The position numbers and the translations under genes were made by a program. A stretch of 30,311 bases of DNA from a virus. Taxonomy: Duplodnaviria; Heunggongvirae; Uroviricota; Caudoviricetes. The DNA is taken from IMG/VR virus record IMGVR_UViG_2778261541_000010, positions 1 through 30,311 of that record; one strand, given 5' to 3'. This document shows positions 4,799 through 30,200 of this stretch, piece by piece. Below the pieces are notes generated by a model. That model ran no database searches, was not told the origin of the DNA, and saw only the letters and a list, made by a program, of their open reading frames with translations. The stretch's first letter is position 1. Each line of letters begins with the position of its first letter.

Positions 4799-5833
4799 TC
4801 AATATTTGATATACGCGTCCTGCACTTTGCCGCCAGCGATAGCCAACATTGCTTTCTGCGCGAATTCTTCGGGAATGCCTTGGGCTATCAGATCTGCGAT
4901 TACTCTGCGGTTAACGGTACGGCGATGCTCTTTATCCGCAGCTCGGCGCGCTTCTTCGTCGGCGATACGCTTCTGTTCTTCAATGCGGGCTTTTTCTGCC
5001 TCCTCTTGGCGTCGGCGTTCCTCGGCAACGGCTTCTTCTTTTTCGCGTCGTGCACGCTGCTCTGCTTCAATTCGCTGACGTTCTGCTACTTCAGCACGTG
5101 CTTTCTCTTCCGCCGCTAGGCGTGCCGCAGCATCAATTTCAGCTTTCGCTTTTTGTTCAGCTTCGAGCCTGGCCTGTTCAGCAGCTTCCCGGCGGATATT
5201 CTCTTCTCGCTCAATGCGCGCTTTTTCCTCCGCTTCTTTGCGAAGTCTCTCCAGCTCAGCGGCTTCATGCTCGCGTTTTTGAGCTACTGCGAGTGATTCT
5301 TCCAGTTTCTGGATGGTTGAATCCTTGGCTACTCCAGCTTCTGCTGCGTACTCCTGCCAACTCTCATCAAGTGCTACTGATTTAGCCTCTTGAATTCGTT
5401 CCTGAATATCAGTTGATGGCAAGTAGTTTCCGGAGAGATCGATCACGTCAGCCAGTGCTCGCAAATTTGTCAGGCGTTGTTGCAGTGCTTCAGTGCGTAA
5501 TTTCTCAGCATTTTCCCACTCGGTGAGTGGGCGGCGTACTTCATCACGAAGCCGATCGCATTCGGTTACGAAGCGTCGTAACTCTGCTTCAACTACTTTC
5601 GGCTGTTCTTTCAGGCGTTTCAGATAATCACGTCCTGGTTTTTCTACCGCTGTTTTACTTCTTGAAACCTTCGCAGCCAGAGATGCAATGCGCTTTCTGC
5701 CTTTGTCTGTGCTAATGTCAGGCACTTCATTAACACCTTCACGGATCTGCTCGAGAAACTTTTCCAGTCCTTTTTCAACGTAAATTCTTGGTGCCATATC
5801 TGGTGTGATTTCGATGATTGATAATTCACTCAT
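4799..5833 (-). CDS. Coiled-coil, E/A/R/K-rich phage protein (TolA-like low complexity)
   Basis: 344-aa ORF with a long repetitive charged helical region (EAEQKAKAEIDAAARLAAEEKARAE...); first large gene of the leftward operon. Confidence 0.6.
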   Translation of the reverse strand: MSELSIIEITPDMAPRIYVEKGLEKFLEQIREGVNEVPDISTDKGRKRIASLAAKVSRSKTAVEKPGRDYLKRLKEQPKVVEAELRRFVTECDRLRDEVRRPLTEWENAEKLRTEALQQRLTNLRALADVIDLSGNYLPSTDIQERIQEAKSVALDESWQEYAAEAGVAKDSTIQKLEESLAVAQKREHEAAELERLRKEAEEKARIEREENIRREAAEQARLEAEQKAKAEIDAAARLAAEEKARAEVAERQRIEAEQRARREKEEAVAEERRRQEEAEKARIEEQKRIADEEARRAADKEHRRTVNRRVIADLIAQGIPEEFAQKAMLAIAGGKVQDAYIKY

Positions 5834-6010: not shown

Positions 6011-6025
6011 TTACCGTTGAGGTAA
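6011..6025. promoter_or_regulatory. Operator: perfect 15-bp palindrome TTACCGTTGAGGTAA overlapping the -10 of the leftward early promoter
   Basis: TTACC-N5-GGTAA; 62 bp centre-to-centre from the 6073 site. Confidence 0.7.
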
Positions 6026-6053
6026 TAATTATGCGTATCTGGTTTGATGTCAA
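6025..6053 (-). promoter_or_regulatory. Leftward early promoter (PL-like)
   Basis: Minus-strand TTGACA (6053-6048) followed 14-17 nt later by CATAAT/AATTAT; flanked by two operator palindromes. Confidence 0.5.
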
Positions 6054-6072
6054 TAGGTATGAGTTAAAAAAA

Positions 6073-6087
6073 TTACCCATCAGGTAA
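6073..6087. promoter_or_regulatory. Operator: TTACCCATCAGGTAA
   Basis: Perfect TTACC-N5-GGTAA palindrome between the repressor terminator and the leftward promoter. Confidence 0.7.
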
Positions 6088-6097
6088 TCGCACAGGC

Positions 6098-6123
6098 AAT
6101 AAAAAAGCCGCCATGAGGCGGCT
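6098..6123 (-). terminator. Intrinsic terminator of the repressor gene
   Basis: Minus-strand hairpin AGCCGCC-TCAT-GGCGGCT followed by TTTTTATT; 22 nt downstream of the repressor stop. Confidence 0.7.
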
Positions 6124-6144
6124 TACTTACTGAAAAATATGATT

Positions 6145-6729
6145 TTATTGTTTGTTTTTTTCGTTCTGGCTGATGACAAATTCAATGTAACTTTCGATCT
6201 TTGCCTTCTCTGTTTCAGGTAACAATGCGTAGCGCGAGCGGTCATAGTTGATGGTCGCAGGGTCGTGCGGGTGAATCAGTAATTCATAGCCGTGACGCCC
6301 GAATGCGGATGCAACATTCTCCAGGGTGGAAATGGAAACACTGACCTCATTGTTTAACAGGCGGCTGATTGTCACCTGGGCGACGCCGGATGCGCGGTGA
6401 AGTTTTCCCTGCGTTGAAAGGTCGCGGCTTTCGCTCATCCAGCGTTCTAGGTTGTGAGCCGCCAGCTGACCAATGTCGCTTGGGCCGACAGGCTGAAAAC
6501 CTTCCTGAGAAAGCGAGCGATCGATATCAAGCCAGTTACGGGGTTTATTGGCGGCAGCTTCAATTTTTCGCGCAACCTGGTCGCCGATAACCTTCTTGCC
6601 AAGAGCCCAGCGGTTTACCAGATTTGCCTGAGTTCCAAGTTTTTCTGCCATCCGCGTCTGAACACCATTGAATTCACGGTCGATCAAGTCGTTGAGATTT
6701 TGCCTGCGGACGTCCTGGATACTTTTCAT
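6145..6729 (-). CDS. Phage repressor with two XRE-type HTH domains in tandem (CI-like function)
   Basis: Two HTH segments (MAEKLGTQANLVNRWALGKK and ASGVAQVTISRLLNNEVSVS); divergent from a cro-like gene across an operator-rich intergenic region; own terminator downstream. Confidence 0.8.
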   Translation of the reverse strand: MKSIQDVRRQNLNDLIDREFNGVQTRMAEKLGTQANLVNRWALGKKVIGDQVARKIEAAANKPRNWLDIDRSLSQEGFQPVGPSDIGQLAAHNLERWMSESRDLSTQGKLHRASGVAQVTISRLLNNEVSVSISTLENVASAFGRHGYELLIHPHDPATINYDRSRYALLPETEKAKIESYIEFVISQNEKNKQ

Positions 6730-6784
6730 TTTCTGGAAAATCGCCTCATATATGAATCAGTAGATGATTCAATTTAAAGCAATA

Positions 6785-6799
6785 TTACCCAATAGGTAA
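6785..6799. promoter_or_regulatory. Operator O1 of the immunity region: TTACCCAATAGGTAA
   Basis: Perfect palindrome between divergent repressor and cro genes. Confidence 0.7.
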
Positions 6800-6801
6800 A
6801 T

Positions 6802-6816
6802 GCACCCCATAGGTAA
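6802..6816. promoter_or_regulatory. Degenerate operator O2: GCACCCCATAGGTAA
   Basis: Right half-site perfect, left half 3/5; 17 bp from O1. Confidence 0.45.
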
Positions 6817-6829
6817 CTATCCTTGATTT

Positions 6830-6858
6830 TTGTTACCTTATGGGTGAATATTTATTAT
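6830..6858 (+). promoter_or_regulatory. Rightward early promoter driving cro (PR-like)
   Basis: TTGTTA-17 bp-TATTAT, about 25 nt upstream of the cro ATG. Confidence 0.5.
6833..6847. promoter_or_regulatory. Operator O3: TTACCTTATGGGTGA (one mismatch), overlapping the cro promoter
   Basis: Overlaps -35 TTGTTA (6830-6835) of a promoter with -10 TATTAT (6853-6858), 17-bp spacer. Confidence 0.55.
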
Positions 6859-6883
6859 CTGAAATAAATATCAGGCAATAGCT

Positions 6884-7114
6884 ATGAGCGATAACGGACA
6901 TTTCGATTTCAAAAAGCACTGGCTTGCACTTACTCCGGATGAGCGTGAAGCCTTCGCACAGGAAGCCGGAACGACGAGTCACTATATCCAGACTCACTTA
7001 ACAGGTAAGCGCAAAATGCCAGGTAAGGTATTGATGAATGGGCTTTTTAAAGCCTGTAAAACAAGACAATGGCTGCGCTCAAAAGCAGAACTGGCATACT
7101 TCTTCTACTCATGA
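6884..7114 (+). CDS. Cro-like small HTH regulator
   Basis: 76-aa ORF divergent from the repressor; HTH-like LTPDEREAFAQEAGTTSHYIQTHLTGKR; promoter and operators immediately upstream; terminator downstream. Confidence 0.6.
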   Translation: MSDNGHFDFKKHWLALTPDEREAFAQEAGTTSHYIQTHLTGKRKMPGKVLMNGLFKACKTRQWLRSKAELAYFFYS

Positions 7115-7136
7115 TATCCAGCCACAACCCTCTGTA

Positions 7137-7158
7137 GACCGCCATCCGGCGGTCTTTT
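7137..7158 (+). terminator. Intrinsic terminator immediately after cro (tR1-like)
   Basis: GACCGCC-ATCC-GGCGGTC followed by TTTTCAT. Confidence 0.6.
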
Positions 7159-7169
7159 CATATCTATTC

Positions 7170-7184
7170 GCACCTCAAAGGTAA
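7170..7184. promoter_or_regulatory. Degenerate operator-like site GCACCTCAAAGGTAA
   Basis: Same GCACC-N5-GGTAA variant as the 6802 site; lies between the cro terminator and the zinc-ribbon gene. Confidence 0.35.
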
Positions 7185-7264
7185 TAAAAAACCAAATCTG
7201 GTTGATCTTTTTTTTGTGTCAGCACAAAATAACCGTAATCCCAATACTAATAACAGGGCTTACC

Positions 7265-7465
7265 ATGGAAATCATTACACGTATTGATGCCGCAAAGCGC
7301 GGACTTAAACGCTACTACACCGGAAAACCATGTAAGCACGGACATGACAGTGAACGCTGGGTTTACAACGGACACTGTGTTGAGTGCACCATGGAATCAA
7401 ACCGTCGCATCAGGGCAGAGATTAAGCAGATCATGATTAATTCCTCCCCACAACATTCAAGCTGA
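7265..7465 (+). CDS. Small zinc-ribbon protein (C-x-H...C-x2-C), occupying the cII-like position
   Basis: YYTGKPCKHGHDSERWVYNGHCVEC motif; start trimmed to the ATG at 7265 rather than the track start at 7202. Confidence 0.5.
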   Translation: MEIITRIDAAKRGLKRYYTGKPCKHGHDSERWVYNGHCVECTMESNRRIRAEIKQIMINSSPQHSS

Positions 7466-7480
7466 TAGCGGAGATTAATC

Positions 7481-8278
7481 ATGAGCAGACATGCAACAGA
7501 TTGGGCCTGGGAGACAGATCCAGGGAGCTCGTCATTAAAGCTCATACTGCTCTCGATGGCTGACAGAGCCGATGAATATAACCTCTGCTACCCCAGCATA
7601 GAACGCCTCGTTAAAGACACTTGCCTGAATAAAAAAACCGTGCAGGCCGGACTTATATCGCTCATGAAAATGGGGCTTATTTCAGATACCGGAGAGAGAA
7701 AGGGAGCGACGAAAAGAGTGCGGGTTTTCTCTCTTAATATAACCAAAAACGGGAACATTAAAGGCAACCGGGAAGGGAGGAATGTTCCCGAAAACGGTAA
7801 TGTTCCCGAAAACGGGATGTTGAATGATCCCAAAAACGGGATGTTGAATGATCCCAAAAACGGGATCCAGAACCAGTCATATAACCAGTCATTTAACCAA
7901 GAGAGGGAGAGCAGGACAAAAACCGGGGATTCTGTGCCTCATGACCCCGGCGCAAACAACGCCGTGATGAATAACTTTGTTCCTCCTGGTGGGCCAGGGC
8001 AATTAGGCAAATTTGTCATGCATGAACAATGGCAACCATCAGATGACTTTCTTCGGAAAAGCTCATTGCAGGGGATCTACCTGGACAGTCTGCCAACGGC
8101 ACAGGAACTTGCAGAGTTCAGAATTTACTGGATGGCTGAGGGTAAGGCATACCATCAGGCACAGTGGGAGCAGAAGCTGGCAAGGCGGCTGCAGATTAGC
8201 AGACAGAAGCAATCAACATTACCTGATAACAACGTTCCGCACTGGAACAGCCCTGAAGCATGGGAGGATTTCTTGTGA
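7481..8278 (+). CDS. Replication initiator (lambda O-like) with iterons inside the coding sequence
   Basis: N-terminal HTH-like region, internal peptide repeats NVPENG/MLNDPKNG encoded by DNA iterons, C-terminal region typical of initiator/primosome proteins; GGAG RBS; followed by a P-like gene with GTGA overlap. Confidence 0.7.
   Translation: MSRHATDWAWETDPGSSSLKLILLSMADRADEYNLCYPSIERLVKDTCLNKKTVQAGLISLMKMGLISDTGERKGATKRVRVFSLNITKNGNIKGNREGRNVPENGNVPENGMLNDPKNGMLNDPKNGIQNQSYNQSFNQERESRTKTGDSVPHDPGANNAVMNNFVPPGGPGQLGKFVMHEQWQPSDDFLRKSSLQGIYLDSLPTAQELAEFRIYWMAEGKAYHQAQWEQKLARRLQISRQKQSTLPDNNVPHWNSPEAWEDFL
7741..7900. repeat. Iteron cluster (putative origin of replication) inside the O-like gene
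   Basis: Tandem 18-bp repeat AATGTTCCCGAAAACGG(T/G) x2 (7781-7816), tandem 24-bp repeat ATGTTGAATGATCCCAAAAACGGG x2 (7817-7864), shared core AAAACGGG in 5 copies including an inverted partial copy at 7746-7758, then AACCAGTCAT x2 (7871-7892). Confidence 0.7.
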
Positions 8279-9060
8279 ACAACGTTTTTACCGCGATACA
8301 AAACCGTGACGGAGAAGCCCTTTCTCGCATGTCAGGTTATGAGCATCAGTACACCAACAATGACAACGTGGTGAACATGTCAGCAGAGAGGCTTGTTGAT
8401 GCCCTTTTCAAACAGCTGAAACAACTGTTTCCGGCGGCAGTGGTAACCAACCTGAAGACGCCAGAGCAGGAAGTTGCTGCAAAACAGCAGTGGATTGCTG
8501 CGTTTGCCGAAGGGGGGATCCGAACCCGTGAACAGGTTTCTGCTGGTATGCGCCACGCCCGCGCCAGTGAATCTCCGTTCTGGCCGTCGCCTGGGCAATT
8601 TATCAAGTGGTGTAAAGACAGCAAGATGGTTCTTGGCGTCACCATTGACGATGTGATGGCGGAGTTTCACCGGTACAGCAAGGAAAAAAGTTTATATCCT
8701 GGTGGTCCCGAAAGATTCCCGTGGCGACATCCGGTTATGTACTGGGTCGTATGTGATACCCGCCGTGCAATGTATCAGCGCCAGCTTAGCGAGATTGAGG
8801 TTGAGAAACACGCGCGCAGGCTGCTCGATGATTGGGCGAAAAAGGTGGCTTCCGGACAGCAGATACCCGATCCGGTGATCAGCATACAGGCAAAGCCAGA
8901 ACCCATGAGTACGCCTCCTGACACTGGGAGAGACGTTTACCATCCACCAGGGCGAAGTTTCGGGTGCATGCCTAACGCCGCCACCCTGGGGGGAATAACA
9001 CCGGCGCAGTGGCTGATAGAGGAATACAGGCGGGGAAAGGCGGCAGGATTTATCAAGTAA
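8275..9060 (+). CDS. Replication protein P-like helicase loader
   Basis: LFPAAVVTNLK...QQWIAAFAEGGIRTREQVSAGMRHARASESPFWPSPGQFIKWCK parallels lambda P (TFPASLANRD...RRQWVLAFRENGITTMEQVNAGMRVARRQNRPFLPSPGQFVAWCR); GTG 8275 preceded by GGGAGG, ATG 8260 is the alternative start. Confidence 0.8.
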   Translation: MNNVFTAIQNRDGEALSRMSGYEHQYTNNDNVVNMSAERLVDALFKQLKQLFPAAVVTNLKTPEQEVAAKQQWIAAFAEGGIRTREQVSAGMRHARASESPFWPSPGQFIKWCKDSKMVLGVTIDDVMAEFHRYSKEKSLYPGGPERFPWRHPVMYWVVCDTRRAMYQRQLSEIEVEKHARRLLDDWAKKVASGQQIPDPVISIQAKPEPMSTPPDTGRDVYHPPGRSFGCMPNAATLGGITPAQWLIEEYRRGKAAGFIK

Positions 9061-9065
9061 TACCA

Positions 9066-9085
9066 GCGCGATAGCGCATTTTTTT
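9066..9085 (+). terminator. Weak intrinsic terminator-like element after the P-like gene
   Basis: Short GCGC-GATA-GCGC stem followed by ATTTTTTT. Confidence 0.35.
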
Positions 9086-9097
9086 ACGCCTACATGA

Positions 9098-9112
9098 TTA
9101 CCTGTTGGGTAA
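9098..9112. promoter_or_regulatory. Operator: TTACCTGTTGGGTAA
   Basis: Perfect palindrome upstream of the -35 of the 9.1-kb promoter. Confidence 0.7.
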
Positions 9113-9131
9113 CAAAATGTTCTAATCTCTA

Positions 9132-9160
9132 TTGATTCCATGTCTTATGTGGTTTTTAAT
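9132..9160 (+). promoter_or_regulatory. Promoter for the accessory (nin-like) operon
   Basis: TTGATT (9132-9137)-17 bp-TTTAAT (9155-9160); flanked by operators at 9098 and 9160. Confidence 0.5.
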
Positions 9161-9174
9161 TACCTAAGGGGTAA
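9160..9174. promoter_or_regulatory. Operator: TTACCTAAGGGGTAA overlapping the -10/+1 region and the ribosome-binding site of the DUF1064 gene
   Basis: Perfect palindrome ending 4 nt before the ATG at 9178; 62 bp from the 9098 site. Confidence 0.7.
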
Positions 9175-9177
9175 ATC

Positions 9178-9522
9178 ATGAGAAAACAGATACAGGCTCT
9201 TGGTCGACTCAAAACAGGCCAAATGAACAAAACAGAATCTGCGTATTGCCAGCACCTTGAGCTGCGTAAACGTGCAGGAGAAATCGTCTGGTATCGATTT
9301 GAGGGTATCAAGCTGCGGTTAGCTGACAACACGTTCTATACGCCCGATTTTGCTGTGATGCTCGCCACCGGCGAGATGGAACTGCACGAAGTGAAAGGTT
9401 TCTGGACCGACGACGCCAGGGTGAAAACCAAAGTCGCCGCAGATCAGTATCCGTTCCGAATCATCGGGGTAACGGTTAAACCAAAGAAAGCAGGTGGTGG
9501 CTGGAACATCGAAGAGTTCTGA
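9178..9522 (+). CDS. DUF1064-like phage protein with a PD-(D/E)XK-like motif
   Basis: TPDFAV...ELHEVKG motif; first gene after an operator-flanked promoter. Confidence 0.5.
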   Translation: MRKQIQALGRLKTGQMNKTESAYCQHLELRKRAGEIVWYRFEGIKLRLADNTFYTPDFAVMLATGEMELHEVKGFWTDDARVKTKVAADQYPFRIIGVTVKPKKAGGGWNIEEF

Positions 9523-9583
9523 AGCGACGATCTTTTTAGTTATCAATGTAATCAATAAGTTATGTGGATAAGCGAGGGTAAAG

Positions 9584-10114
9584 ATGGAAAGTAATATCAA
9601 AGGGTTAGTTGCCGCCGGGCATGAGATGGCTTCGGAACTGAAAGCAGAATGTGGTGCCGTTGATATGCGCAGTGTGGCAAAGCTGATCAGCGATTTGGCA
9701 ACGCAACTGGAAGTGCAACTGGTGCGTGCTAATGTGCTGGCGGCGGAGAATGCGGGGCTTAAGGCGATATGTGATGACCGTCGCAGATTCATCATGAATG
9801 GGGTGCAGATGGGTTATATCAAGGTGCCAGCAGCGGAAACAGATCCAGACCTTGAGACAATTCGCATTGCTATATCACCACAAAAGCCCATTCCAGCCAC
9901 TGATGCTTTCCTGTCTGAAGTGCGGGCGCAGGGGGGGGATGCTGCTATAGAAGCTGCAAAAAATCTGGTGGTCCAAGAATATGAGTATAAGGATTTCAAA
10001 GCGGCGCAGAGTGATTGCTGTATGCACCCTGGTTCAGACCTGGTAGGGAAGGTTGAAATGACTGAGTGGTTAGTTGACTTTGCTGCCCAGCTTCGCAAAG
10101 GAGGCAACCAGTGA
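9584..10114 (+). CDS. Hypothetical phage protein (possibly Ea22-like)
   Basis: 176-aa ORF with GAGGG RBS; family assignment tentative. Confidence 0.45.
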   Translation: MESNIKGLVAAGHEMASELKAECGAVDMRSVAKLISDLATQLEVQLVRANVLAAENAGLKAICDDRRRFIMNGVQMGYIKVPAAETDPDLETIRIAISPQKPIPATDAFLSEVRAQGGDAAIEAAKNLVVQEYEYKDFKAAQSDCCMHPGSDLVGKVEMTEWLVDFAAQLRKGGNQ

Positions 10115-10728
10115 GCGAAATTAATTACCAGGCATTGCGTGAGGTGGCGGAACGTGCAATTCCAGCAATGGAACGCCTGTTAATGTTGCCAGTTGATGAT
10201 GATTTGTTAAGTGAACAGGAACTTAAAGATTACGGTGTGGATATTGATGCGCTCAACGCCTTCAAACTTCTGGCCGGACCAGAAACCGTGCTGGCACTAC
10301 TGGATGAACGGGAAAGAAACCAGCAATACATCAAACGCCGCGACCAGGAGAACGAGGAGATTGCGCTAACGGTAGGGAAACTGCGTGTTGAGCTTGAGGA
10401 AGCAAAATCAAAACTCAACGAGCAGCGTGAATATTACGAAGGTGTTATCTCGGATGGGAGTAAGCGCATTGCTGAACTGGAAAGCAACGAAGTCCATGAA
10501 GACGGAAATCAGTTTCTTGTTGTTCGCCACCCCGGGAAATCTCCGGTAATCAAGCACTGCACTGGTGACCTGGAAGAGTTTCTGCGGAAGTTAATCGAAC
10601 AAGACCCGTTAGTAACTATCGACATCATTACGCATCGCTATTACGGGATTGGCGGTCAATGGGTTCAGGATGCAGTTGAGTATCTGCATATGATGTCTGA
10701 CGCTGGCATTCGCATCAAAGGAGAGTGA
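10111..10728 (+). CDS. ead/Ea22-like family protein
   Basis: N-terminal INYQALREVAERA plus central coiled coil resembles Ea22-like proteins of lambdoid prophages; AAAGGAGG RBS, GTGA overlap with upstream stop. Confidence 0.5.
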   Translation: MSEINYQALREVAERAIPAMERLLMLPVDDDLLSEQELKDYGVDIDALNAFKLLAGPETVLALLDERERNQQYIKRRDQENEEIALTVGKLRVELEEAKSKLNEQREYYEGVISDGSKRIAELESNEVHEDGNQFLVVRHPGKSPVIKHCTGDLEEFLRKLIEQDPLVTIDIITHRYYGIGGQWVQDAVEYLHMMSDAGIRIKGE

Positions 10729-10729
10729 T

Positions 10730-11218
10730 ATGAGCGCTATAACCAAAGAACGTATCGAATTATTCATTAAAAATCCGCTCGATAACGGACTTACCCGTGG
10801 CGAACAAATGGAACTGGCACGAATTGCACTGGCATCGCTGGAAGCAGAGCCGGTGGTGTGGAAGGTAACATTCACGCAAATTGACCGTGAATATAACACG
10901 TTCACTGGTATGTATTCTGACAAAGCAGAAGTCGAACGGTGGCTGCGGCTGCATAAAGCATGTAATTTTCGGGCAGATATAACACCGCTTTATACCGCCA
11001 AGCCAGTGCCGGTAACTCCGGATGGTTGGATAAGCTGTAGTGAGCGAATGCCCGCTCAAGATGATTGGATTTTAATTTATTCAAAGCACGGTGAGTATAT
11101 GGCAGGACAGGTGCAAGGGGAATACGTGGAGTTGAGCGACGGCACTTTATCGTGGTTAGGGAACGCCTTGTTCTGGATGCCACTACCGGAACCACCGCAG
11201 GAGGTTAACCGTGGCTAA
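10730..11218 (+). CDS. DUF551 domain protein
   Basis: C-terminal WISCSERMP...WMPLPEPP matches the DUF551 signature common in lambdoid nin regions. Confidence 0.6.
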   Translation: MSAITKERIELFIKNPLDNGLTRGEQMELARIALASLEAEPVVWKVTFTQIDREYNTFTGMYSDKAEVERWLRLHKACNFRADITPLYTAKPVPVTPDGWISCSERMPAQDDWILIYSKHGEYMAGQVQGEYVELSDGTLSWLGNALFWMPLPEPPQEVNRG

Positions 11219-11492
11219 CCTGCAACTTGCCGTCAAAGGTGAATACTTCGATGCCATGATTCGCGGGGAGAAAACGGAAGAGTATCGCCTGTGTAATGAC
11301 TACTGGAATAAGCGAATTATGTTCCGGGAGTATGACCGCCTGATTATCACAAAGGGATATCCGAAGCGCGACGATTCCAGCCGCAGAATTGACGTCCCGT
11401 ATGACGGATATGAAATCAAGACAATCACACATCCGCACTTCGGCGATAAACCGGTAAATGTGTTCGCGATAAAGGTAAATATTGATGGCTAA
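11211..11492 (+). CDS. Hypothetical protein, possibly ASCH/PUA-like fold
   Basis: 93-aa ORF (GTG start) overlapping the upstream stop; weak resemblance to ASCH-domain phage proteins. Confidence 0.4.
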   Translation: MANLQLAVKGEYFDAMIRGEKTEEYRLCNDYWNKRIMFREYDRLIITKGYPKRDDSSRRIDVPYDGYEIKTITHPHFGDKPVNVFAIKVNIDG

Positions 11493-11823
11493 ATCAGCAG
11501 CAGAGCGCAAAGCCGCTCAGAGAGCCAGACAAGCTGCATCTGGTGTGCGTAAGCTGGAAATTGTGCTTGATGCTCAGGAAATTGAAATGCTGGAGCGTAA
11601 CTGTGCCACGCGTCGCCCCGGGCGTGCGCCTTACGAATTTGGTGAGTATATAGCGTTACTGATCCGCCAGGATGATGCACGCGTGCGCGGGCGTATAAAA
11701 TCGATCAGCAGAAAACGTTGCGGTAAGTGCGGCGAGAGAGTTCCAGTTAATTCATGCCCGTGTAATGGTGACTCGCAATGCTGGGTGACCAAAGGCTGGC
11801 ATGAAACGAAATTAATAGTGTGA
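11485..11823 (+). CDS. Putative ribbon-helix-helix DNA-binding protein with C-terminal Cys-rich zinc-ribbon motif; candidate late-gene regulator
   Basis: RKLEIVLDAQEIEMLERN (beta-strand then helix, RHH-like) and CGKCG...CPCNGDSQC; last regulator-like gene before the terminase block. Confidence 0.45.
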   Translation: MAKSAAERKAAQRARQAASGVRKLEIVLDAQEIEMLERNCATRRPGRAPYEFGEYIALLIRQDDARVRGRIKSISRKRCGKCGERVPVNSCPCNGDSQCWVTKGWHETKLIV

Positions 11824-11840
11824 CATGTCACGAAGGTGTT

Positions 11841-12053
11841 ATGCCAAAAATACGCTACGACCTTGAAGATATGAGAGATAACTCAGCAAATTTTCCGAAA
11901 GAGGTTAAATTTCTCATGCATAAGTATGGTTGCGCCAGGAGGGATATAGTTATCGACAGTCAGCACCCTTGCGGCGAGGATGTAATTTTCATTCGCGGTA
12001 AATGGGAAGGGTATCTTGACGAGAGTTTTTACGATGAATTTGATGGACTTTGA
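11841..12053 (+). CDS. Hypothetical small protein (70 aa)
   Basis: ATG at 11841 with GAAGGTG RBS; the track ORF begins earlier inside a palindrome; followed by an intrinsic terminator. Confidence 0.4.
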   Translation: MPKIRYDLEDMRDNSANFPKEVKFLMHKYGCARRDIVIDSQHPCGEDVIFIRGKWEGYLDESFYDEFDGL

Positions 12054-12058
12054 ATACT

Positions 12059-12084
12059 GCCGCCAACTATGGCGGCTTTATTTT
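12059..12084 (+). terminator. Intrinsic terminator between the early/accessory region and the terminase genes
   Basis: GCCGCC-AACTAT-GGCGGC followed by TTTATTTT. Confidence 0.7.
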
Positions 12085-12095
12085 GCATGGTACTA

Positions 12096-12110
12096 TTACC
12101 ACAACGGTAA
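12096..12110. promoter_or_regulatory. Operator: TTACCACAACGGTAA, immediately upstream of the small terminase start
   Basis: Perfect palindrome; a degenerate overlapping repeat follows at 12114-12128 (TTACCACGGTGGTTA). Confidence 0.6.
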
Positions 12111-12127
12111 CTATTACCACGGTGGTT

Positions 12128-12724
12128 ATGATGCCTGCTGAACCTAAAACCTATAAACGCAAATCAACGCAATTTAAGCCACTAACAGCAATGCAGGAGG
12201 CTTATTGCCAGTCATACATCAAAACGCCTGAAAACCAGACTCAGGCAGCGATTAACGCAGGATTCTCCCCAAATACAGCGGCAGTTAAAGCCAGTGTCAT
12301 GATGCGCGATGAACGCATTCAAAAACGGATTGCCGAGCTGATGGAGGAGCGCAACAAACGAATGCGCGTCAGTGCTGATTACGTTCTCATGCGTCTGGTG
12401 GAGATCGACCAGATGGACGTGATCGACATCCTCAACGACGATGGGAGCCTTAAGCCAATCCGCGAGTGGCCGAAAATTTGGCGCACTACGCTTAGTGGCT
12501 TTGATCTGTCATCGACCATCATGAACATGAACGAGGATTCGATAGAGACAATCCTCAAAAAAATTAAATGGCCTGATAAGGTGAAGAACCTCGAACTGAT
12601 TGGTAAGCACGTCGACGTCAACGCATTCAAAGAACGCCTGGATGTTAATGTGAATGTGACAATTGCTGATCGCATAGCGGCAGCCAGGAAGAGACTGAAA
12701 GAACGTCAGGATGGCAATCAGTGA
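12128..12724 (+). CDS. Terminase small subunit
   Basis: TAMQEAYCQSYIKTPENQTQAAINAGFSP matches the HTH of phage small terminases; start trimmed to ATG 12128 (track start 12050 runs through a terminator and repeats). Confidence 0.7.
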   Translation: MMPAEPKTYKRKSTQFKPLTAMQEAYCQSYIKTPENQTQAAINAGFSPNTAAVKASVMMRDERIQKRIAELMEERNKRMRVSADYVLMRLVEIDQMDVIDILNDDGSLKPIREWPKIWRTTLSGFDLSSTIMNMNEDSIETILKKIKWPDKVKNLELIGKHVDVNAFKERLDVNVNVTIADRIAAARKRLKERQDGNQ

Positions 12725-14196
12725 CAGATACAGCGTTATCTCCTGAAGAGCAGTTAATCGAGGATATTGCAGGGTTCACTCACGATCCGCTTGGCTATGC
12801 CCTCTATGCGTTCCCGTGGGGGGAAGAGGGGACTGAACTGGCACATGCTACCGGCCCACGTCAGTGGCAGGCCGATGCGTTCCGAGAGATACGTGATCAC
12901 CTGCAGAATCCCGAGACGCGCTATCAGCCGCTTATGCTGGCACGTGCTTCGGGTCACGGTATTGGTAAATCAGCACTCATCTCAATGTTGATCAACTGGG
13001 GCATGTCCACTTGCGAGGATTGTAAGGTCGTGGTGACCGCCAACACCGACAACCAGCTACGAACGAAGACCTGGCCGGAAATTATCAAGTGGTCAAACCT
13101 TGCTATCACGAAAGACTGGTTTACCTGTACCGCTACCGCGATGTACAGCAATGACCCTGGGCACGACAAGCGGTGGCGAGCTGACGCAATCCCATGGTCT
13201 GAGCACAACACTGAGGCATTCGCCGGACTACACAACGAGCGCAAACGCATCATCGTGGTATTCGATGAAGCGTCGAACATTGCCGATCTGGTGTGGGAGG
13301 TAACAGAGGGTGCGCTGACGGACGAAGACACCGAAATCATCTGGGTGGCGTTCGGAAACCCGACTCGTAATACCGGACGTTTCCGTGAATGTTTCCGCAA
13401 GTATAAACACCGCTGGAAAACTGCGCAGATTGACAGTCGGACGGTGGAAGGTACCAACAAACAGCAGTTGCAGAAATGGGTTGATGACTACGGGGAAGAC
13501 AGCGACTTCGTTAAAATCCGTGTGCGTGGCATATTCCCTGATGCATCTGAATTGCAGTTTATCCCTACCGGTCTTACTGACGAGGCAATGAAACGGGTGG
13601 TAACCGCTGCGCAGGTTGCACATGCTCCGGTGATAATCGGCGTTGACCCGGCATACTCCGGTGTTGATGACGCTGTGATATACCTGCGGCAGGGGCTACA
13701 CAGTAAGGTGCTGTGGACTGGCAACAAGACTACCGACGATCTGATTATGGCGAAGCGTATCGCTGACTTTGAAGACCAGTATCAGGCTGACGCGGTGTTC
13801 ATCGACTTCGGTTACGGAACCGGTTTGAAGTCAATCGGTGACGGCTGGGGTCGTACATGGCAACTTGTTCCGTTCGGTGGCGCGTCTACTGACCCGCAGA
13901 TGCTCAACAAGCGTGGGGAGATGTTCAACTCATGCAAGACATGGCTGAGGCTCGGCGGCATGCTGGATGACCAAGAAACAGCGGACGACCTGTCGACGGC
14001 AGAGTACAAAGTTCGCGTGGACGGTAAAATCGTTATCGAACCGAAGGAAGATATCAAGGAGCGACTTGGGCGTTCGCCGGGGAAAGGCGATGCGCTATTG
14101 CTGACGTTTGCTTTCCCGGTCTCGAAACGCATAAATATACCAGGACAGCAAAGCCAGCAGGGAAGGGCCATAACGGATTATGACCCTTATGCTTAA
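12721..14196 (+). CDS. Terminase large subunit (ATPase/nuclease)
   Basis: Walker A-like ASGHGIGKS, Walker B-like IIVVFDEAS, C-terminal nuclease-like region; overlaps small-subunit stop. Confidence 0.85.
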   Translation: MTDTALSPEEQLIEDIAGFTHDPLGYALYAFPWGEEGTELAHATGPRQWQADAFREIRDHLQNPETRYQPLMLARASGHGIGKSALISMLINWGMSTCEDCKVVVTANTDNQLRTKTWPEIIKWSNLAITKDWFTCTATAMYSNDPGHDKRWRADAIPWSEHNTEAFAGLHNERKRIIVVFDEASNIADLVWEVTEGALTDEDTEIIWVAFGNPTRNTGRFRECFRKYKHRWKTAQIDSRTVEGTNKQQLQKWVDDYGEDSDFVKIRVRGIFPDASELQFIPTGLTDEAMKRVVTAAQVAHAPVIIGVDPAYSGVDDAVIYLRQGLHSKVLWTGNKTTDDLIMAKRIADFEDQYQADAVFIDFGYGTGLKSIGDGWGRTWQLVPFGGASTDPQMLNKRGEMFNSCKTWLRLGGMLDDQETADDLSTAEYKVRVDGKIVIEPKEDIKERLGRSPGKGDALLLTFAFPVSKRINIPGQQSQQGRAITDYDPYA

Positions 14197-14237
14197 TCCG
14201 CTGGTGGGGATAATACTGCTGATATCCTCTGGTGAGG

Positions 14238-14266
14238 ATAAAACAAAGCCAGCTCATCGGCTGGCT
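14238..14266. terminator. Terminator between convergent terminase large subunit and the moron gene (strong on minus strand, weak on plus)
   Basis: AGCCAGC-TCATCG-GCTGGCT; minus-strand reading is followed by TTGTTTTAT, plus-strand by GTTTGT. Confidence 0.6.
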
Positions 14267-14286
14267 GTTTGTGACATGTCACGGTG

Positions 14287-14667
14287 TTATTGCTCGCTTA
14301 ACTTCTGCTTCAGCAAGTAACCTTCGAGCATCCAGATTTTGTTTACAGCATTCTGCCGGGCAATCTTCCGACCAATTTCTGCATCAAAATTTTCCGGGCT
14401 TGCACAGGCACTCTCTCCGGTGACGGTGAAGCCATTCTTCAGCACCAGTACGCAGAAAGTGAGCAACTTCAATGGTGATAAATCACGATCGCCTTCTTCT
14501 GGTTTTTCTCTGCCACAATATTCGTTGCTGGAAATGGCACCATTTCGTCCATCATAAGCAGTAAAGTAATGCTCGCTTTTAATCACATCTTCGATGTGCT
14601 GCGGGGTGATTCGCGGTGCCGTTTTGCCTTTCTCAACGATTTCTTTTTCGATTTGCTGGTCGTTCAT
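14287..14667 (-). CDS. Reverse-oriented moron gene, likely DUF1398 (YbcV/YdfO-like) family
   Basis: 126-aa ORF on the opposite strand to all flanking structural genes; AAGGTGAG RBS; intrinsic terminators on both sides; family assignment from memory of YbcV/YdfO-like prophage proteins. Confidence 0.5.
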   Translation of the reverse strand: MNDQQIEKEIVEKGKTAPRITPQHIEDVIKSEHYFTAYDGRNGAISSNEYCGREKPEEGDRDLSPLKLLTFCVLVLKNGFTVTGESACASPENFDAEIGRKIARQNAVNKIWMLEGYLLKQKLSEQ

Positions 14668-14678
14668 AATCTCACCTT

Positions 14679-14702
14679 AAAAAAATGCCCGGTTCGCCGG
14701 GC
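14679..14702 (-). terminator. Intrinsic terminator directly upstream of the moron gene RBS (minus strand)
   Basis: Minus-strand GCCCGG-CGAA-CCGGGC followed by ATTTTTTT, then AAGGTGAG and the ATG. Confidence 0.65.
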
Positions 14703-14780
14703 GAACTGGAAGCAATGAGTTATGCCTTCCGTGGCTGTACTGGTTTACAGCATGAAGTCATCGCAATGGCGTCCTGCTGT

Positions 14781-14822
14781 AAAAAGGGCGGTGATAGTCC
14801 TTCAAGGGAAACCATCACCGCC
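14781..14822 (-). terminator. Terminator downstream of tRNA-Arg (minus strand)
   Basis: 9-bp stem GGCGGTGAT/ATCACCGCC with structured loop, followed on the minus strand by CTTTTTAC. Confidence 0.55.
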
Positions 14823-14865
14823 AAGCACCTGGAACTTCTGGCATCACGGTCCTTAGGCGTGATTC

Positions 14866-14942
14866 TGGCGTGGCATGCAGGATTCGAACCTGCGACCAAC
14901 CGCTTAGAAGGCGGTTGCTCTGTCCGACTGAGCTAATGCCAC
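14866..14942 (-). tRNA. tRNA-Arg (anticodon UCU), phage-encoded, with encoded CCA
   Basis: Reverse complement folds as a 77-nt cloverleaf: acceptor GTGGCAT/ATGCCAC, D-arm GCTC-AGTCGGACA-GAGC, anticodon arm ACCGC-CTTCTAA-GCGGT (anticodon TCT), T-arm GCAGG-TTCGAAT-CCTGC, discriminator G, CCA. Confidence 0.9.
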
Positions 14943-15264
14943 AACGCTGAGAGCACTTAGCCTGTTAAGGCGCCACACTTTGTCGCGGCTCCATAAATGC
15001 TCTCATCGTTGTACCCTCGCCTCTTCCGAGGCGTCACACCGAATCGCCGGGATGGTGAATCCCCGTGCGCGGAATAAAACCGCTCGACTTGCACATTCCG
15101 GCTACCTGGTTCGTTTGCCCGAGCAAGGGAGGGTGCCCCTTAAACGTATCCAGACCGCTATCGGCGCATGTGCCATACGCCGTACTGCTCAAAATAAAAG
15201 CTCACTCCACCTGTTCAATTTAACGACAAGCCAGTCAGGTTAGTAACCGGAATGAACCCTTTAC

Positions 15265-15279
15265 TTACCTGAAAGGTAA
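15265..15279. promoter_or_regulatory. Operator: TTACCTGAAAGGTAA upstream of the virion-gene operon
   Basis: Perfect palindrome about 90 bp upstream of the first structural gene. Confidence 0.65.
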
Positions 15280-15369
15280 TAATTCGTGCGTTAAATGTCA
15301 ACTATCTACGATAAATAAATCATATATGGTTAAATTGGTGATAATTTAATTGCGTACGGAGTCATTGAT

Positions 15370-19761: not shown

Positions 19762-20097
19762 ATGTCAGGTGAGAAACCAAGATACCGCGTTCTGCGCCTC
19801 TCTCATATCCATAACACACTGTGGCCGGAGGGGGCAGAAATCGAATACGAAGGTGAGCCTGGTAGCGCACTGGAACCTGTTAACGATGCAGCCAGACAGG
19901 CAAAAGCAAAGGTAGCAGGAAAGGTGACTATGGCAGCAACCAGCACCAAAATCATCAACGATGTGTCAGATGATGGTGAACTGGATAAGCTCCGTGAAGA
20001 GTACGAATTGCTCTTTAACGAGAAGCCACACCATAACGCCAAAGCCGAAACGCTCCGCGAGAAGATCGCAGATAAGCGTAAAGAACTGGGCGTGTAA
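19762..20097 (+). CDS. Hypothetical virion-module protein (111 aa)
   Basis: ATG 19762 preceded by AAGGTGA (track start 19753 is a GTG inside the RBS); followed by a terminator-like hairpin. Confidence 0.45.
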   Translation: MSGEKPRYRVLRLSHIHNTLWPEGAEIEYEGEPGSALEPVNDAARQAKAKVAGKVTMAATSTKIINDVSDDGELDKLREEYELLFNEKPHHNAKAETLREKIADKRKELGV

Positions 20098-20471: not shown

Positions 20472-21076
20472 TGGCCTCTGTAGTAGAGATCTGTAATCGT
20501 GCGCTGTCCAATATTGGCAACAGCCGCAGCATTAACAGCCTGACGGAAGCCAGCAAGGAAGCAGGGGAATGTTCGCTGCACTTTGAGGCCTGCCGTGATG
20601 CTGTGCTTTCTGATTTTGACTGGAACTTTGCTACCAAACGCGTGGCGCTTGCAGATACGAACAATCCACCGCCTGACTGGGAATATGCGTACCAGTACCC
20701 GTCCGATTGTCTGCGCATTACTGAAATTATGCTTCCTGGTGTACGCAATCCAACAGCAGCAATGCGCGTCCAGTACGAAGTGGGTGCAGACACCAATGGA
20801 ACAGGAAAGTTGATCTACACAGGCCAGCCGCAGGCATGGCTCAAGTATGTCTCTCGCGTTTCAGATGTAAACATGTTTGATGCCATTTTTATGGAGGCGC
20901 TGGCCTGGCGTCTTGCGGCAGCCATTAACATGGCGCTGACTGGGAATGCAGACCTCGGTACGTTTGCCCTCAATATGTACAATCGCGTGATTCTTAGTGC
21001 TGGCTCGCATAGCCAGAATGAATCACAGGAACCACAGCCACCGGTTGATGAGTTTACCATTGCGAGGTTGTCCTGA
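20471..21076 (+). CDS. Tail tubular protein A (T7 gp11-like)
   Basis: About 200 aa directly upstream of a gp12-like gene; N-terminal pattern N.AL..IG...L.E resembles gp11; GGGGTGAG RBS. Confidence 0.55.
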   Translation: MASVVEICNRALSNIGNSRSINSLTEASKEAGECSLHFEACRDAVLSDFDWNFATKRVALADTNNPPPDWEYAYQYPSDCLRITEIMLPGVRNPTAAMRVQYEVGADTNGTGKLIYTGQPQAWLKYVSRVSDVNMFDAIFMEALAWRLAAAINMALTGNADLGTFALNMYNRVILSAGSHSQNESQEPQPPVDEFTIARLS

Positions 21077-27297: not shown

Positions 27298-30200
27298 TGC
27301 CAGTTTATGCACAAGCTGAAGATCTTAATAACGGACTGATCCCGTCAGGTAACGTTTTGCCGGAACAAACTGGGTTTGATGTTGCCCTTCCGGAAGGGGC
27401 TAATCCTGAGCCATTGCCACCTGAGCCTTCCGTATGGGGGGCTGCAATGCGACAGAACAATATTCTGTCTGGTTTTTTCCGCCCAGCCAGACAGTTTGAA
27501 CCGGTCGAGGGTTATAACCCATATGCTGATAAAAATGAGTTGCACGGTTATGAATACTGGGGGGCGAAATTTGCAGATTCCCGATCGCCAGAGGAAACGG
27601 CGTGGATTAAGCAGCAGATAGATGATGAAAATGAAGACAGACGTTTATTGTCTGATGCTGGCGTAGTTGGAACCCTTGCCAGTATTGCTGCGGGAATGGA
27701 TCCGGTTACTGTTGCGTCAATGTTTATTCCCGGTGCTCAAGGAGGGGCACTGGCGCGTATTGGCTCACAGATTGCGATTGGTGCTGCCGGTACAGCATTA
27801 AGCGAGGTTGTACTGAATAATCAGCAAATAACACGCTCATGGGGTGAAAGTGCCGCTCACGTTGCAGCGGGTGCGATGATGAGCGGCGTGTTTGCCAGTG
27901 CTGGTGTTGCGCTTTCGCCATCCGTCCGGGCTGCAGCCACACGTGAGGTTGCTGATGCTCTTGATAATATGAGCATTACATCAGCGACTGACAGGGCTGC
28001 CGCTTCGCTTTCCGATGGTGGTAGTGTTGGTGCTATGAAAATTGATACAGCGGCTCTGGATGATTTAACCCCTGTTTCCGGTGGGTGGGTTGGAAAGGCT
28101 GCATGGAAAGCAGGGAGCTATCTTACTCCTTTGACAAGGTTAATGGAGTCTCCGTCCAAGACGGTGCGAAAAACAGCGCTGGAGTTAGCCGAAAATAATT
28201 TCACCCTTAAAGGAAATGAAAGGGGGATTGAAACACCGGTAGCTGTAGAAACCCGTACACGTGGATGGCAGCGTGAAGAAGCTGCTGTTGTTGTCGGAAA
28301 TAAACAGGCATACGCAAAGTATAAAGCTGATGGTGGTGACATGAGTTTTGATTCATTTCGTCAGCAGGTTGGGAATGCTATGCGAAGCGGTGATGTGCAT
28401 GCTAATCCTGTTGTTCAGGAAACGGCGCAGGCGATGCGAACTGTATTAAATCGGGTGAAAGTTGAAATGCAAAAGCTTGGTTTATTGCCGCCAGATGAAG
28501 AACTGAAAGCATTAGGCCAGGCAAGCTATTTCCCACGCATATATAAAGTTGGAAAAATAATCAGTGAACGCGATAAATTTCGACGTATTTTGGTTGACTG
28601 GTGGTCGAGAGGAAATAAAACACTGGATCCTGAGGATGCTGAAATTGCAGCGGATATCGTAATTAATAAAATTACTGGTGCTAAGGTTCCACAGGATTTT
28701 GTCAGCGTATTTTCTGTAAAAGCCGCAGGTAGTACGAAAGAAAGAACATTAAATGTTCCTGATAGTCTTATCAGGGATTATCTTGAAAGTGATGTGAATT
28801 ACGTGCTGCAACGTCATATCCGTGAAGCGGCAGCAGAAATTGAGTTGACGAGAACATTTGGCAAACGAACTATGACTGAGCGTCTGCAATTAATTGAGGA
28901 CGAATATGACAGTCTGTTACGGGAAGTGCCTGAAAAAATAAAGGCGAAATATGACGAAAGTGTGGCAAATCTGAAAGCACGTTATGAGAGCAATGGTGAA
29001 GTTGTTCCTCAGGGTAAACTCGATTCATTAATGCGAAAGTACGAAAAGGAATTACGGAAAGAACAGTCCAGACTTTCAAAATCAAGAGCAAATGATCTCA
29101 GAGACATAACAGCATTACGCGATCGTCTTGTTGGTACATATGGTATGCCTGATGATCCGTCTTCGTTTTTTGTTCGTGCTGGCGCTTTTCTGCGGGATGT
29201 GAACTTCACGACCAAACTCGGTGGAATGACTGTATCAGCTATTCCAGATCTGGCCAGAGGGGTTATGGTTAATGGTTTCCGTAACACCATGAAAGGCTAT
29301 GCTTCTCAGATATCCCAATCACCGGCATTTAAGGCCAGCAAAGAAGAGATGTTGAAGATGGGGATTGGATTGGAAGCTGTACTACATTCACGTTCTCGTG
29401 CAATTGGTGATCTTGTTGACAGTTCTTCCAGGACAACAGCAGTCGAAGCAGGAATGGAGCGAATTACTGATGCCTTCGGCAAGCTGACACTCATGGATCG
29501 ATTTAATGACATAAACAAATCCATGAACGGAATGCTCACGTCAGACGGTATTTTGTCTGGTGCGTTTTCTGCACGTCGCATGGCAAAACTCGGTATCAAC
29601 GACAATATGGCTGCGCGTATTCGCAGTGAGTTCGAGAAACATGGTGAGGTAATTGATGGATGGCACATTGGTAACTTTGATAAATGGGACGATCAGTACG
29701 TTGCCGGAGTATTCCAGTCAGCGGTTCTGAAAGACGTTAATAACACTATCATCACCCCCGGTATTGGTGACACACCTTTATGGGCGAGTACTCCAATGGG
29801 GCGAACGATATTTCAGTTTAAATCATTCACAACGGCTTCATACAACCGTGCGCTACTTGGTGGGTTACAGGAAGGAACTGCGCAATTTTATTATGGCACT
29901 GTATTTCAGATTGCTCTTGGCTCACTGGTCTATGCGCTAAAAGAAGCATCGAAAGGGAAAAATGTTGACTGGTCACCAGAGAAGCTGGTGCTTGAGGGTA
30001 TAGATAGATCCGGTATTCTTGGGCCATTGATGGAATATAACAACATGGCTGAAAAGGCTACTGGTGGTGCTGTTGGGCTGGGGGCTTTATTTGGCACTGG
30101 CACACAGTCTAGGTATGCCAGTCGTGGATTCGTAGGATCTCTATTCGGACCGTCATTTGGTCTTGCGGATAGCATCATTGATGTGACCGCAGGAGTGTTG

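Follow-up and report, generated by a model that had tools for sequence, protein, structure and literature searches.

The stretch of DNA analysed here (the window: 30,311 nt, positions 1 to 30,311 of IMG/VR virus record IMGVR_UViG_2778261541_000010) is, judged by its sequence, a phiV10-like Uetakevirus prophage, and it carries repeated copies of one 15-bp palindrome, TTACC-N5-GGTAA. Its immunity region was 97% identical to that of Escherichia phage phiV10 and the relatives phiv142-3, PAS61 and ZX5 (genus Uetakevirus). The window opens with the start codon of the integrase gene and closes in a gene for a tail or internal-virion protein, so that it does not include the ant-tailspike region, the lysis cassette or attP. 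With a probability of roughly 80%, we read the palindrome as the operator to which Rep (6145-6729), the lysogeny repressor of this phiV10/ε15-type prophage, binds.

An exact scan of the window located seven perfect copies of TTACCNNNNNGGTAA, at positions 6011, 6073, 6785, 9098, 9160, 12096 and 15265. One-mismatch copies were present at 6833 and 12114, and two-mismatch intergenic copies, both reading GCACC-N5-GGTAA, at 6802 and 7170. All seven perfect copies and all four degenerate ones had been listed in an earlier, sequence-only reading of this DNA, and both lists were confirmed. Dinucleotide-preserving shuffles of the window contained a mean of 0.01 perfect copies, and none of 100 shuffles reached seven, so that the earlier chance estimate of about 0.03 copies per 30 kb was of the right order. 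When all 5-mer inverted dyads with gaps of 0 to 12 were enumerated, TTACC with a 5-nt gap was the top dyad with seven copies, and the runner-up had two. Coding and non-coding DNA were told apart by a gene map that follows the annotation of phiV10, in which non-coding DNA made up 5.7% of the window; all nine sites with 0-1 mismatches fell within it. The earlier statement that the copies are all intergenic therefore held for every such site, given an ATG start for terS (see below). The wider scan that had been suggested as a check found no copy with 0-1 mismatches in coding DNA and no perfect copy in Escherichia coli host DNA (three 50-kb chromosome segments and a 9.4-kb host flank taken beside a related prophage, about 160 kb).

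The features of the early switch region are listed below, where OL and OR denote the left and right operators, PL and PR the corresponding early promoters, and HTH a helix-turn-helix; operators are given without a strand.

6011..6025: OL-proximal operator, perfect; half-sites invariant in five phages
6025..6053, minus strand: PL, the leftward early promoter, found by promoter scan (TTGACA 6053..6048, 17-bp spacer, AATTAT 6030..6025)
6073..6087: OL-distal operator, perfect; on the upstream side of the PL -35, at 62 bp from 6011 and just past the rep terminator
6105..6124, minus strand: Rho-independent terminator of the repressor gene, also annotated in phiV10
6145..6729, minus strand: Rep, an ε15/SPC32H-type repressor of 194 amino acids, in which an N-terminal HTH is followed by a central HTH_3-fold domain and a C-terminal tail
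6785..6799: OR operator nearest rep, perfect; the promoter of rep must lie in this region
6802..6816: middle OR operator, GCACC-N5-GGTAA, two mismatches; left half degenerate, 17 bp from 6785
6830..6858, plus strand: PR, driving the cro-like gene, found by promoter scan (TTGTTA, 17-bp spacer, TATTAT)
6833..6847: OR operator over PR, one mismatch; covers part of the PR -35 and spacer
6884..7114, plus strand: Cro-like HTH protein of 76 amino acids (phrog_35, 'transcriptional repressor'), an alternative or second binder
7170..7184: degenerate operator, GCACC-N5-GGTAA; after the cro terminator (7136-7155) and about 27 bp upstream of a putative -35
7202..7230, plus strand: putative promoter past the cro-like gene, read by eye (TTGATC 7202-7207, 17-bp spacer, CAAAAT 7225-7230)

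PL matched the consensus hexamers at 10 of 12 positions, and its -35 was invariant in the alignment of the PL region. On the minus strand, the last T of its -10 hexamer (AATTAT, 6030..6025) is also the first T of TTACC in the 6011 operator. Orthologues of the degenerate 6802 site were perfect in ε15, SPC32H and BUCT711, and orthologues of the 7170 site were found in Tyrion (35365) and BUCT711 (6032). We infer a promoter at 7202-7230, where a half-site, TAACC, directly follows the -10; ε15 has the same layout, with a TTACC half-site at the -10 junction.

The second group of sites lies before the accessory operon and the terminase small-subunit gene terS.

9098..9112: upstream operator of the accessory-operon promoter (P_acc), perfect; about 30 bp upstream of the -35
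9132..9160, plus strand: P_acc, read from the sequence (TTGATT 9132-9137, 17-bp spacer, TTTAAT 9155-9160)
9160..9174: downstream operator of P_acc, perfect; 62 bp from 9098
12088..12096, plus strand: putative extended -10 promoter of terS (P_terS; TGgTACTAT), directly after the terminator at 12059-12076
12096..12110: terS operator 1, perfect; its orthologue in ε15 is annotated 'repressor' at 12-27
12114..12128: terS operator 2, one mismatch; 18 bp from operator 1, ending at the start codon

A short putative terminator annotated in phiV10 precedes the 9098 operator. Both hexamers of P_acc were conserved in the accessory-promoter alignment, the last T of its -10 is the first T of the 9160 operator, and this operator includes the Shine-Dalgarno sequence of a DUF1064/Holliday-junction-resolvase-like gene (ATG at 9178). 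Upstream of terS, a strong terminator hairpin at 12059-12076 is followed by the TG-n-TA(C/T)TAT element, which was kept in Tyrion, ε15 and BUCT711, and again the last T of this element (TGgTACTAT) is the first T of the 12096 operator. The second terS operator had orthologues at 30-44 in ε15 and 85-99 in Tyrion. In the phiV10 record, terS begins at a TTG (window 12050), and with that start the terminator and the 12096 and 12114 sites would fall inside the coding sequence. The ATG at 12128/12131 is the more plausible start, because of the terminator at 12059-12076, because the Pfam Terminase_2 match begins past the ATG, and because ε15 and Tyrion are annotated from the ATG. PL, P_acc and P_terS share this -10/TTACC junction, with the operator beginning at the last base of the -10, which would place a bound protein over about -7 to +8.

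The last perfect site stands between two divergent units.

15265..15279: operator, perfect, between the leftward tRNA/Gp49-like unit and the gp3/portal operon; its ε15 orthologue (2931-2947) is annotated 'repressor'
15273..15301, minus strand: leftward promoter (TTGACA 15301..15296, 17-bp spacer, TACCTT 15278..15273), its -10 inside the 15265 operator

In the alignment of gp3 leaders, the TTGAC and the spacing of the leftward promoter were conserved in five of five phages. From this promoter, the leftward unit runs through about 320 untranslated nt into tRNA-Arg(TCT) (14866-14942) and then an open reading frame similar to Gp49/Sf6 gp66 (14287-14667). The gp3/portal operon, which is read rightward, is preceded by a highly conserved block, ATATGTGGTTAAATTGGTAATAATTTAATT (15323-15353), with -10-like elements and no good -35. 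By its position and orientation, the 15265 site fits the leftward promoter of the tRNA and the Gp49-like gene better than a promoter of the virion operon. The site had earlier been labelled a virion-operon leader: its location was correct, and the direct silencing of the structural operon implied by that label was not borne out, because the geometry points leftward.

The leftward unit as a whole (14287-15301, minus strand) lies between terL and the portal operon and also contains two hairpins followed by T-runs. Its untranslated part (14943-15264) matched no Rfam family, and its fold z-score was just -2.2. The ε15 record annotates an RNase III site in the equivalent stretch.

These positions bear out the earlier claim that the motif marks every operon boundary, in that essentially every transcription unit of the window has it at the boundary that carries the promoter.

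The same dyad was conserved across the genus. TTACC with a 5-nt gap was also the top dyad in ε15 (11 perfect copies), SPC32H (10), Tyrion (9) and BUCT711 (9, with one extra perfect copy spanning the record junction before terS), all far above chance. It was again the top dyad in six more Uetakevirus-like prophages, from Superficieibacter, Candidatus Erwinia dacicola, Klebsiella, two Citrobacter species and Scandinavium, which were found by a Rep-alignment scan of one genome per species. When four intergenic regions (PL, OR, the accessory promoter and the gp3 leader) were aligned from five phages, both half-sites were invariant, and the five central bases and most flanking bases varied, which constitutes a phylogenetic footprint. 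Among 48 pooled sites, A occupied position -1 in 34 and T occupied position +15 in 31, and the centre was A/T-rich; the fuller operator consensus is A-TTACC-N5-GGTAA-T with an A/T-rich centre. Of the distances from one perfect site to the next in 13 sequences, 24 measured 61-63 bp, 6 measured 17 bp and 4 measured 76 bp. The distance by which promoters are bracketed, about six helical turns, is under strong constraint.

The ε15 record (GenBank AY150271.2) contains 'protein_bind: repressor / lysogeny' features at 12-27 before terS, 2931-2947 before gp3/portal and 19895-19911 in the ant/tailspike region, with further 'repressor' features at 32479, 32554 and 32616 at PL and at 35906 before the accessory operon. 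These sites read ATTACC-N5-GGTAAT, the same core as in the window, and the OR triple of ε15 carries no annotation. Operator sites were thus already annotated in ε15, and the feature is known for the genus and not new. Records of the phiV10 lineage do not define the operator; a full-text search for descriptions of a Uetakevirus operator returned the ZX5 paper alone, which gives no operator definition (PMC9782041).

Rep was 99.5% identical to PhiV10p40, and its identity to relatives was 78% for Tyrion, 75% for BUCT554, 45% for Klebsiella phages and about 42% for ε15, SPN1S and SPC32H. Against SPC32H Rep (PDB 5d50), phmmer returned E = 4.1e-42 over residues 1-190, a full-length homology. Pfam placed an HTH_3 fold at residues 106-147 and a weaker HTH at 21-61; an S24 peptidase (LexA-like autocleavage) domain was not found, Pfam returning HTH families only and NCBIfam nothing above its cut-off. 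In an alignment of five Rep proteins, whose overall identity was 42-78%, the N-terminal recognition helix NLVNRW was invariant, which matches the invariance of the operator half-site. In SPC32H Rep, it is reportedly the N-terminal domain that contacts the DNA. According to a secondary account of the work of Kim et al. 2016, SPC32H Rep is a tetramer on palindromic DNA sites, with one palindrome read by DNA-binding domains from different dimers (PMC9638917), and the antirepressor Ant breaks this tetramer (PMC9638917; PMC9986798). Such an architecture would provide two DNA-binding units per tetramer, which fits both the 62-bp pairs and the 17-18-bp pairs. Rep had earlier been described as a tandem-HTH protein; this picture is not secured, the secondary source describing a tetramer.

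The Pseudomonas phage PseuP_224 gave a view from outside the genus. It encodes an S24-type, lambda-like CI whose N-terminal domain was 39% identical to Rep over residues 4-68, and it has three copies of TTACC-N4-GGTAA around cI (5922, 5961 and 6823), suggesting that the half-site specificity reaches beyond Uetakevirus. TTACC dyads were absent from Hydrogenovibrio, Thiomicrospira and Paraburkholderia relatives of the Rep N-terminal domain in which the recognition helix differs. Together, PseuP_224 and the relatives lacking the dyad weakly support a link between the Rep N-terminal domain and TTACC. A Cro-like open reading frame, read by eye, adjoins cI in PseuP_224, and the comparison is therefore uninformative as to Rep versus the Cro-like protein.

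From the homology to 5d50, the invariant NLVNRW helix, the 'repressor' annotations of ε15 and the -10/operator junction at three promoters, Rep is the best candidate binder of the operators. The mechanism that we propose for it is as follows. Transcription would stop at a terminator after each unit and begin anew, for the next, at a sigma-70 promoter belonging to that unit and carrying one or two operators. At PL, P_acc and P_terS, Rep on the operator (-7 to +8) would block open-complex formation, and at PR the operator would cover the -35. At PL and P_acc, a second operator stands beyond the -35, at a distance of 62 bp or about six helical turns, and one Rep tetramer with its two DNA-binding units could clamp both sites and loop the intervening promoter. 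In a lysogen, Rep alone, if it occupied each of these sites, would keep the early-left, early-right, replication, accessory, packaging and leftward tRNA units shut. Upon induction, Rep, which has no S24 autocleavage, would be expected to be inactivated as its SPC32H homologue is, by the LexA-controlled antirepressor Ant.

In phiV10, p24 (a homologue of ε15 gp19/Ant) is preceded by a LexA box, CTGTATAAATACACAG (CTGT-N8-ACAG), at 20822-20837, as in SPC32H (19951-19966). Ant is said to be under LexA control, and the boxes of the two phages agree with this. Another Rep operator was seen in phiV10 between ant and the tailspike gene (20877-20891).

Several points weigh against Rep as the general binder. 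The two-mismatch class was not enriched in intergenic DNA (2 intergenic versus 17 coding copies, the coding matches resembling background), although the positions of 6802 and 7170 correspond to those of orthologous sites in ε15, Tyrion and BUCT711. Three of the promoters, which we take to be functional, fell below the promoter-scan threshold: P_acc, P_terS and the leftward one at 15265. The 15265 operator lies about 60-80 bp upstream of any plausible rightward virion start, and no virion promoter would be occluded there. The 'repressor' features of ε15 may themselves be predictions. Finally, the Cro-like protein could be the main occupant of some sites. Its HTH, AGTTSHYIQxHLT, was invariant in the genus and weakly similar to the N-terminal domain of Rep, its overall identity (58-84%) was higher than that of Rep (42-78%), it belongs to a PHROG of transcriptional repressors, and it occurred together with Rep and the motif in five of five aligned Uetakevirus genomes, as a Cro-like frame also does beside the cI of PseuP_224. 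On this evidence, the distant sites (accessory, terS and 15265) might mainly be targets of the Cro-like protein in lytic growth, governing the timing or level of middle and late transcription, with Rep acting essentially at OL and OR. We consider this division of labour unlikely. The ε15 annotation assigns the sites to the repressor, a phage that turned off its packaging and accessory genes in lytic growth would work against itself, and a small Cro dimer would leave the strict 62-bp pairing unexplained, whereas a tetramer explains it (PMC9638917). Rep and the Cro-like protein probably both read the same operators, by analogy with lambda. What stood of the earlier single-binder claim is that the palindrome is an operator for a phage HTH regulator with Rep as the best candidate; its assignment to Rep over the Cro-like protein is not secured, as sequence alone does not tell which of the two occupies the distant sites.

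The position of 12096 and 12114, between the strong terminator at 12059-12076 and the terS ATG and with no -35, together with the position of 6073, 7170 and 9098 directly after terminators, would also suit roadblocks to terminator read-through at terS, and perhaps elsewhere, in the style of mycobacteriophage stoperators. This is very improbable, since four lineages have the conserved extended -10 (TGnTA(C/T)TAT) directly against the operator, joined to it just as the -10 is at PL and P_acc, and since the sites are palindromic, strictly intergenic and unoriented, and are not scattered inside operons. A palindrome unrelated to transcription, serving packaging, recombination, restriction-modification or a host factor, could be argued from the pair directly before terS, where pac sites can be, and from the bipartite form, which is like that of type I restriction-modification recognition sites. 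The three copies between rep and cro and the two at PL, which overlap -35 or -10 elements as operators classically do, and the absence of the motif from the sampled host DNA make this hardly credible, and conservation in phages of at least eight host genera speaks against a host-specific factor; on these grounds we rejected the pac-site, restriction-modification and host-factor readings. The Rep operator remains our preferred reading.

As to late control, the sequence-only reading had proposed direct silencing by one protein instead of a lambda-style N/Q antitermination cascade. No family match to N or Q was obtained when subsets of the small PL- and PR-operon proteins were searched against Pfam, PHROGs and NCBIfam, which is weak evidence of absence. 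A terminator comes before every unit, and each has a promoter to itself, an arrangement that fits the idea of direct, module-by-module control. The earlier remark that no N/Q homologue is recognised was thus upheld, whereas the conclusion that there is no late regulator is insecure, given the following protein, a PerC-like activator encoded in the PL operon (2089-2388) and the missing -35 elements.

11482..11823, plus strand: putative transcriptional regulator of 113 amino acids, homologous to ε15 gp49 (phrog_536, 'transcriptional regulator')

This gene lies one open reading frame upstream of terS, the place held by Q in lambda. The protein has a predicted strand-helix-helix N-terminus, which could be a ribbon-helix-helix according to this prediction, and a conserved cysteine-rich C-terminus. 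It had no match in Pfam, NCBIfam or PDB, all 726 of its 726 homologues were named 'hypothetical', and its AlphaFold model had a mean confidence score (pLDDT) of 57.6, too low for a fold search. We regard it as a candidate late regulator. Neither the terS promoter nor the virion promoter has a good -35, as would suit promoters that are weak or depend on an activator. The 93-amino-acid protein at 11211-11492, whose PGAP orthologue is named 'RNA-binding protein', was considered as an N-like factor and rejected because it has no arginine-rich motif; by eye it resembles an ASCH domain.

The block upstream of gp3/portal (window 15323-15353) can be written as ATAT(G/A)TGGTTAAATTGGT(A/G)ATAATTTAATT. 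A similar sequence, TATGTGGTTTTTCAGGTAATAGAAT, precedes the tailspike gene of phiV10 (20921-20948), and TATGTGGTTTTTAAT occurs within P_acc (window 9145-9160). These similar sequences at gp3, the tailspike gene and P_acc may represent one promoter element through which a second regulator acts.

Two further observations concern the left part of the prophage. In four phages, a conserved one-mismatch site, TTACCyTAAAGGTAT, preceded the start of the integrase gene by about 45-55 bp (phiV10 26870-26884, SPC32H 26960-26974, and 26882-26896 and 28568-28582 in two further phages). In the window, it would fall immediately to the left of base 1. This conserved upstream site suggests that int may also be under Rep control. 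Within the PL operon, a 344-amino-acid open reading frame of unknown function (4799-5833, minus strand; phrog_1376) accompanies separate exonuclease and RecT genes, and the phiV10 record annotates a single RecE-RecT fusion gene in this region instead.

The separate elements can be combined into a broader scheme, in which one immunity specificity would hold across the genus, the transcription programme would be free of antitermination, and each promoter would be bracketed by a Rep tetramer on two operators. For this to be so, the specificity would have to extend over at least eight enterobacterial genera with the half-site and both recognition helices frozen while Rep otherwise diverged to about 42%, and two operators exactly six helical turns apart would have to be present at each promoter, each module having its terminator and its own promoter. 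We hold the scheme as a whole to be possible, and doubtful. If it were true, timing after induction would be set only by operator quality, promoter strength and the Cro-like protein.

The Rep-operator reading has more immediate uses. It implies that the prophage has an intact ε15-type immunity circuit, and the map of Rep-controlled promoters could be useful for engineering phiV10-like phages, which serve as O157 reporter and typing phages. For work on the SPC32H Rep tetramer, the useful additions are the genus-invariant half-sites, the bracketing at 61-63 bp, the junction at three promoters and the leftward orientation at 15265. These additions are modest and unsurprising, and they leave the regulatory picture for such phages unchanged. 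That one repressor acts directly on many operons is already annotated for ε15, and P1, L5 and IncP plasmids offer precedents for it.

The closest known system is that of ε15 and SPC32H. The window has the identical operator core and orthologous sites throughout (the PL pair, the OR triple, the accessory pair, the terS pair and the gp3/portal leader), Rep aligns over its full length and has no S24 domain, and phiV10 has an ant gene with a LexA box. The differences are that Rep in the window is just about 42% identical overall, with an identical recognition helix; that the degenerate half of the middle OR site is not the one that is degenerate in the OR site over PR; and that PL has three operators in ε15 and two in the window. 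With full-length Rep homology, the operator sequence and orthologous positions all present, the window belongs, as far as sequence can place it, to the ε15/SPC32H Rep-operator system.

As in lambda, the window has a divergent repressor and cro, a three-part OR and operators over PR and PL, and shared use of the operators by both proteins and cooperative or looped binding by a higher-order repressor oligomer would be expected. Unlike in lambda, where CI acts at OL and OR alone and late genes need N/Q antitermination, the operators in the window are also present at the accessory, packaging and other units, Rep has no RecA-dependent autocleavage domain, and no N/Q homologue was detected.

In P1, a single immunity repressor, C1, controls many operons through dispersed operators; these are asymmetric 17-mers, C1 is unrelated to Rep, and the late genes need the activator Lpa. 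The likeness to the window, one repressor acting on many operons, is one of analogy and not of homology, as it is for the two systems that follow. The stoperators of mycobacteriophages L5 and L1 are oriented, lie within transcribed regions and block elongation. The L5/L1 repressor has multiple asymmetric operators across the genome (PMC1934351). The window shares with L5 the many repressor sites over a phage genome; its sites, in contrast, are palindromic, those with 0-1 mismatches are intergenic, three abut a -10 hexamer, and most overlap or flank a promoter, with 12114 and the distal sites lying beside one, all of which sets them apart from stoperators. In the IncP plasmid RP4, KorA and KorB have a palindromic operator reused at the promoters of several modules (PMC2665229), as in the window; there, however, the replicon is a plasmid, the proteins are unrelated, and two cooperating repressors stand in place of the repressor/Cro pair.

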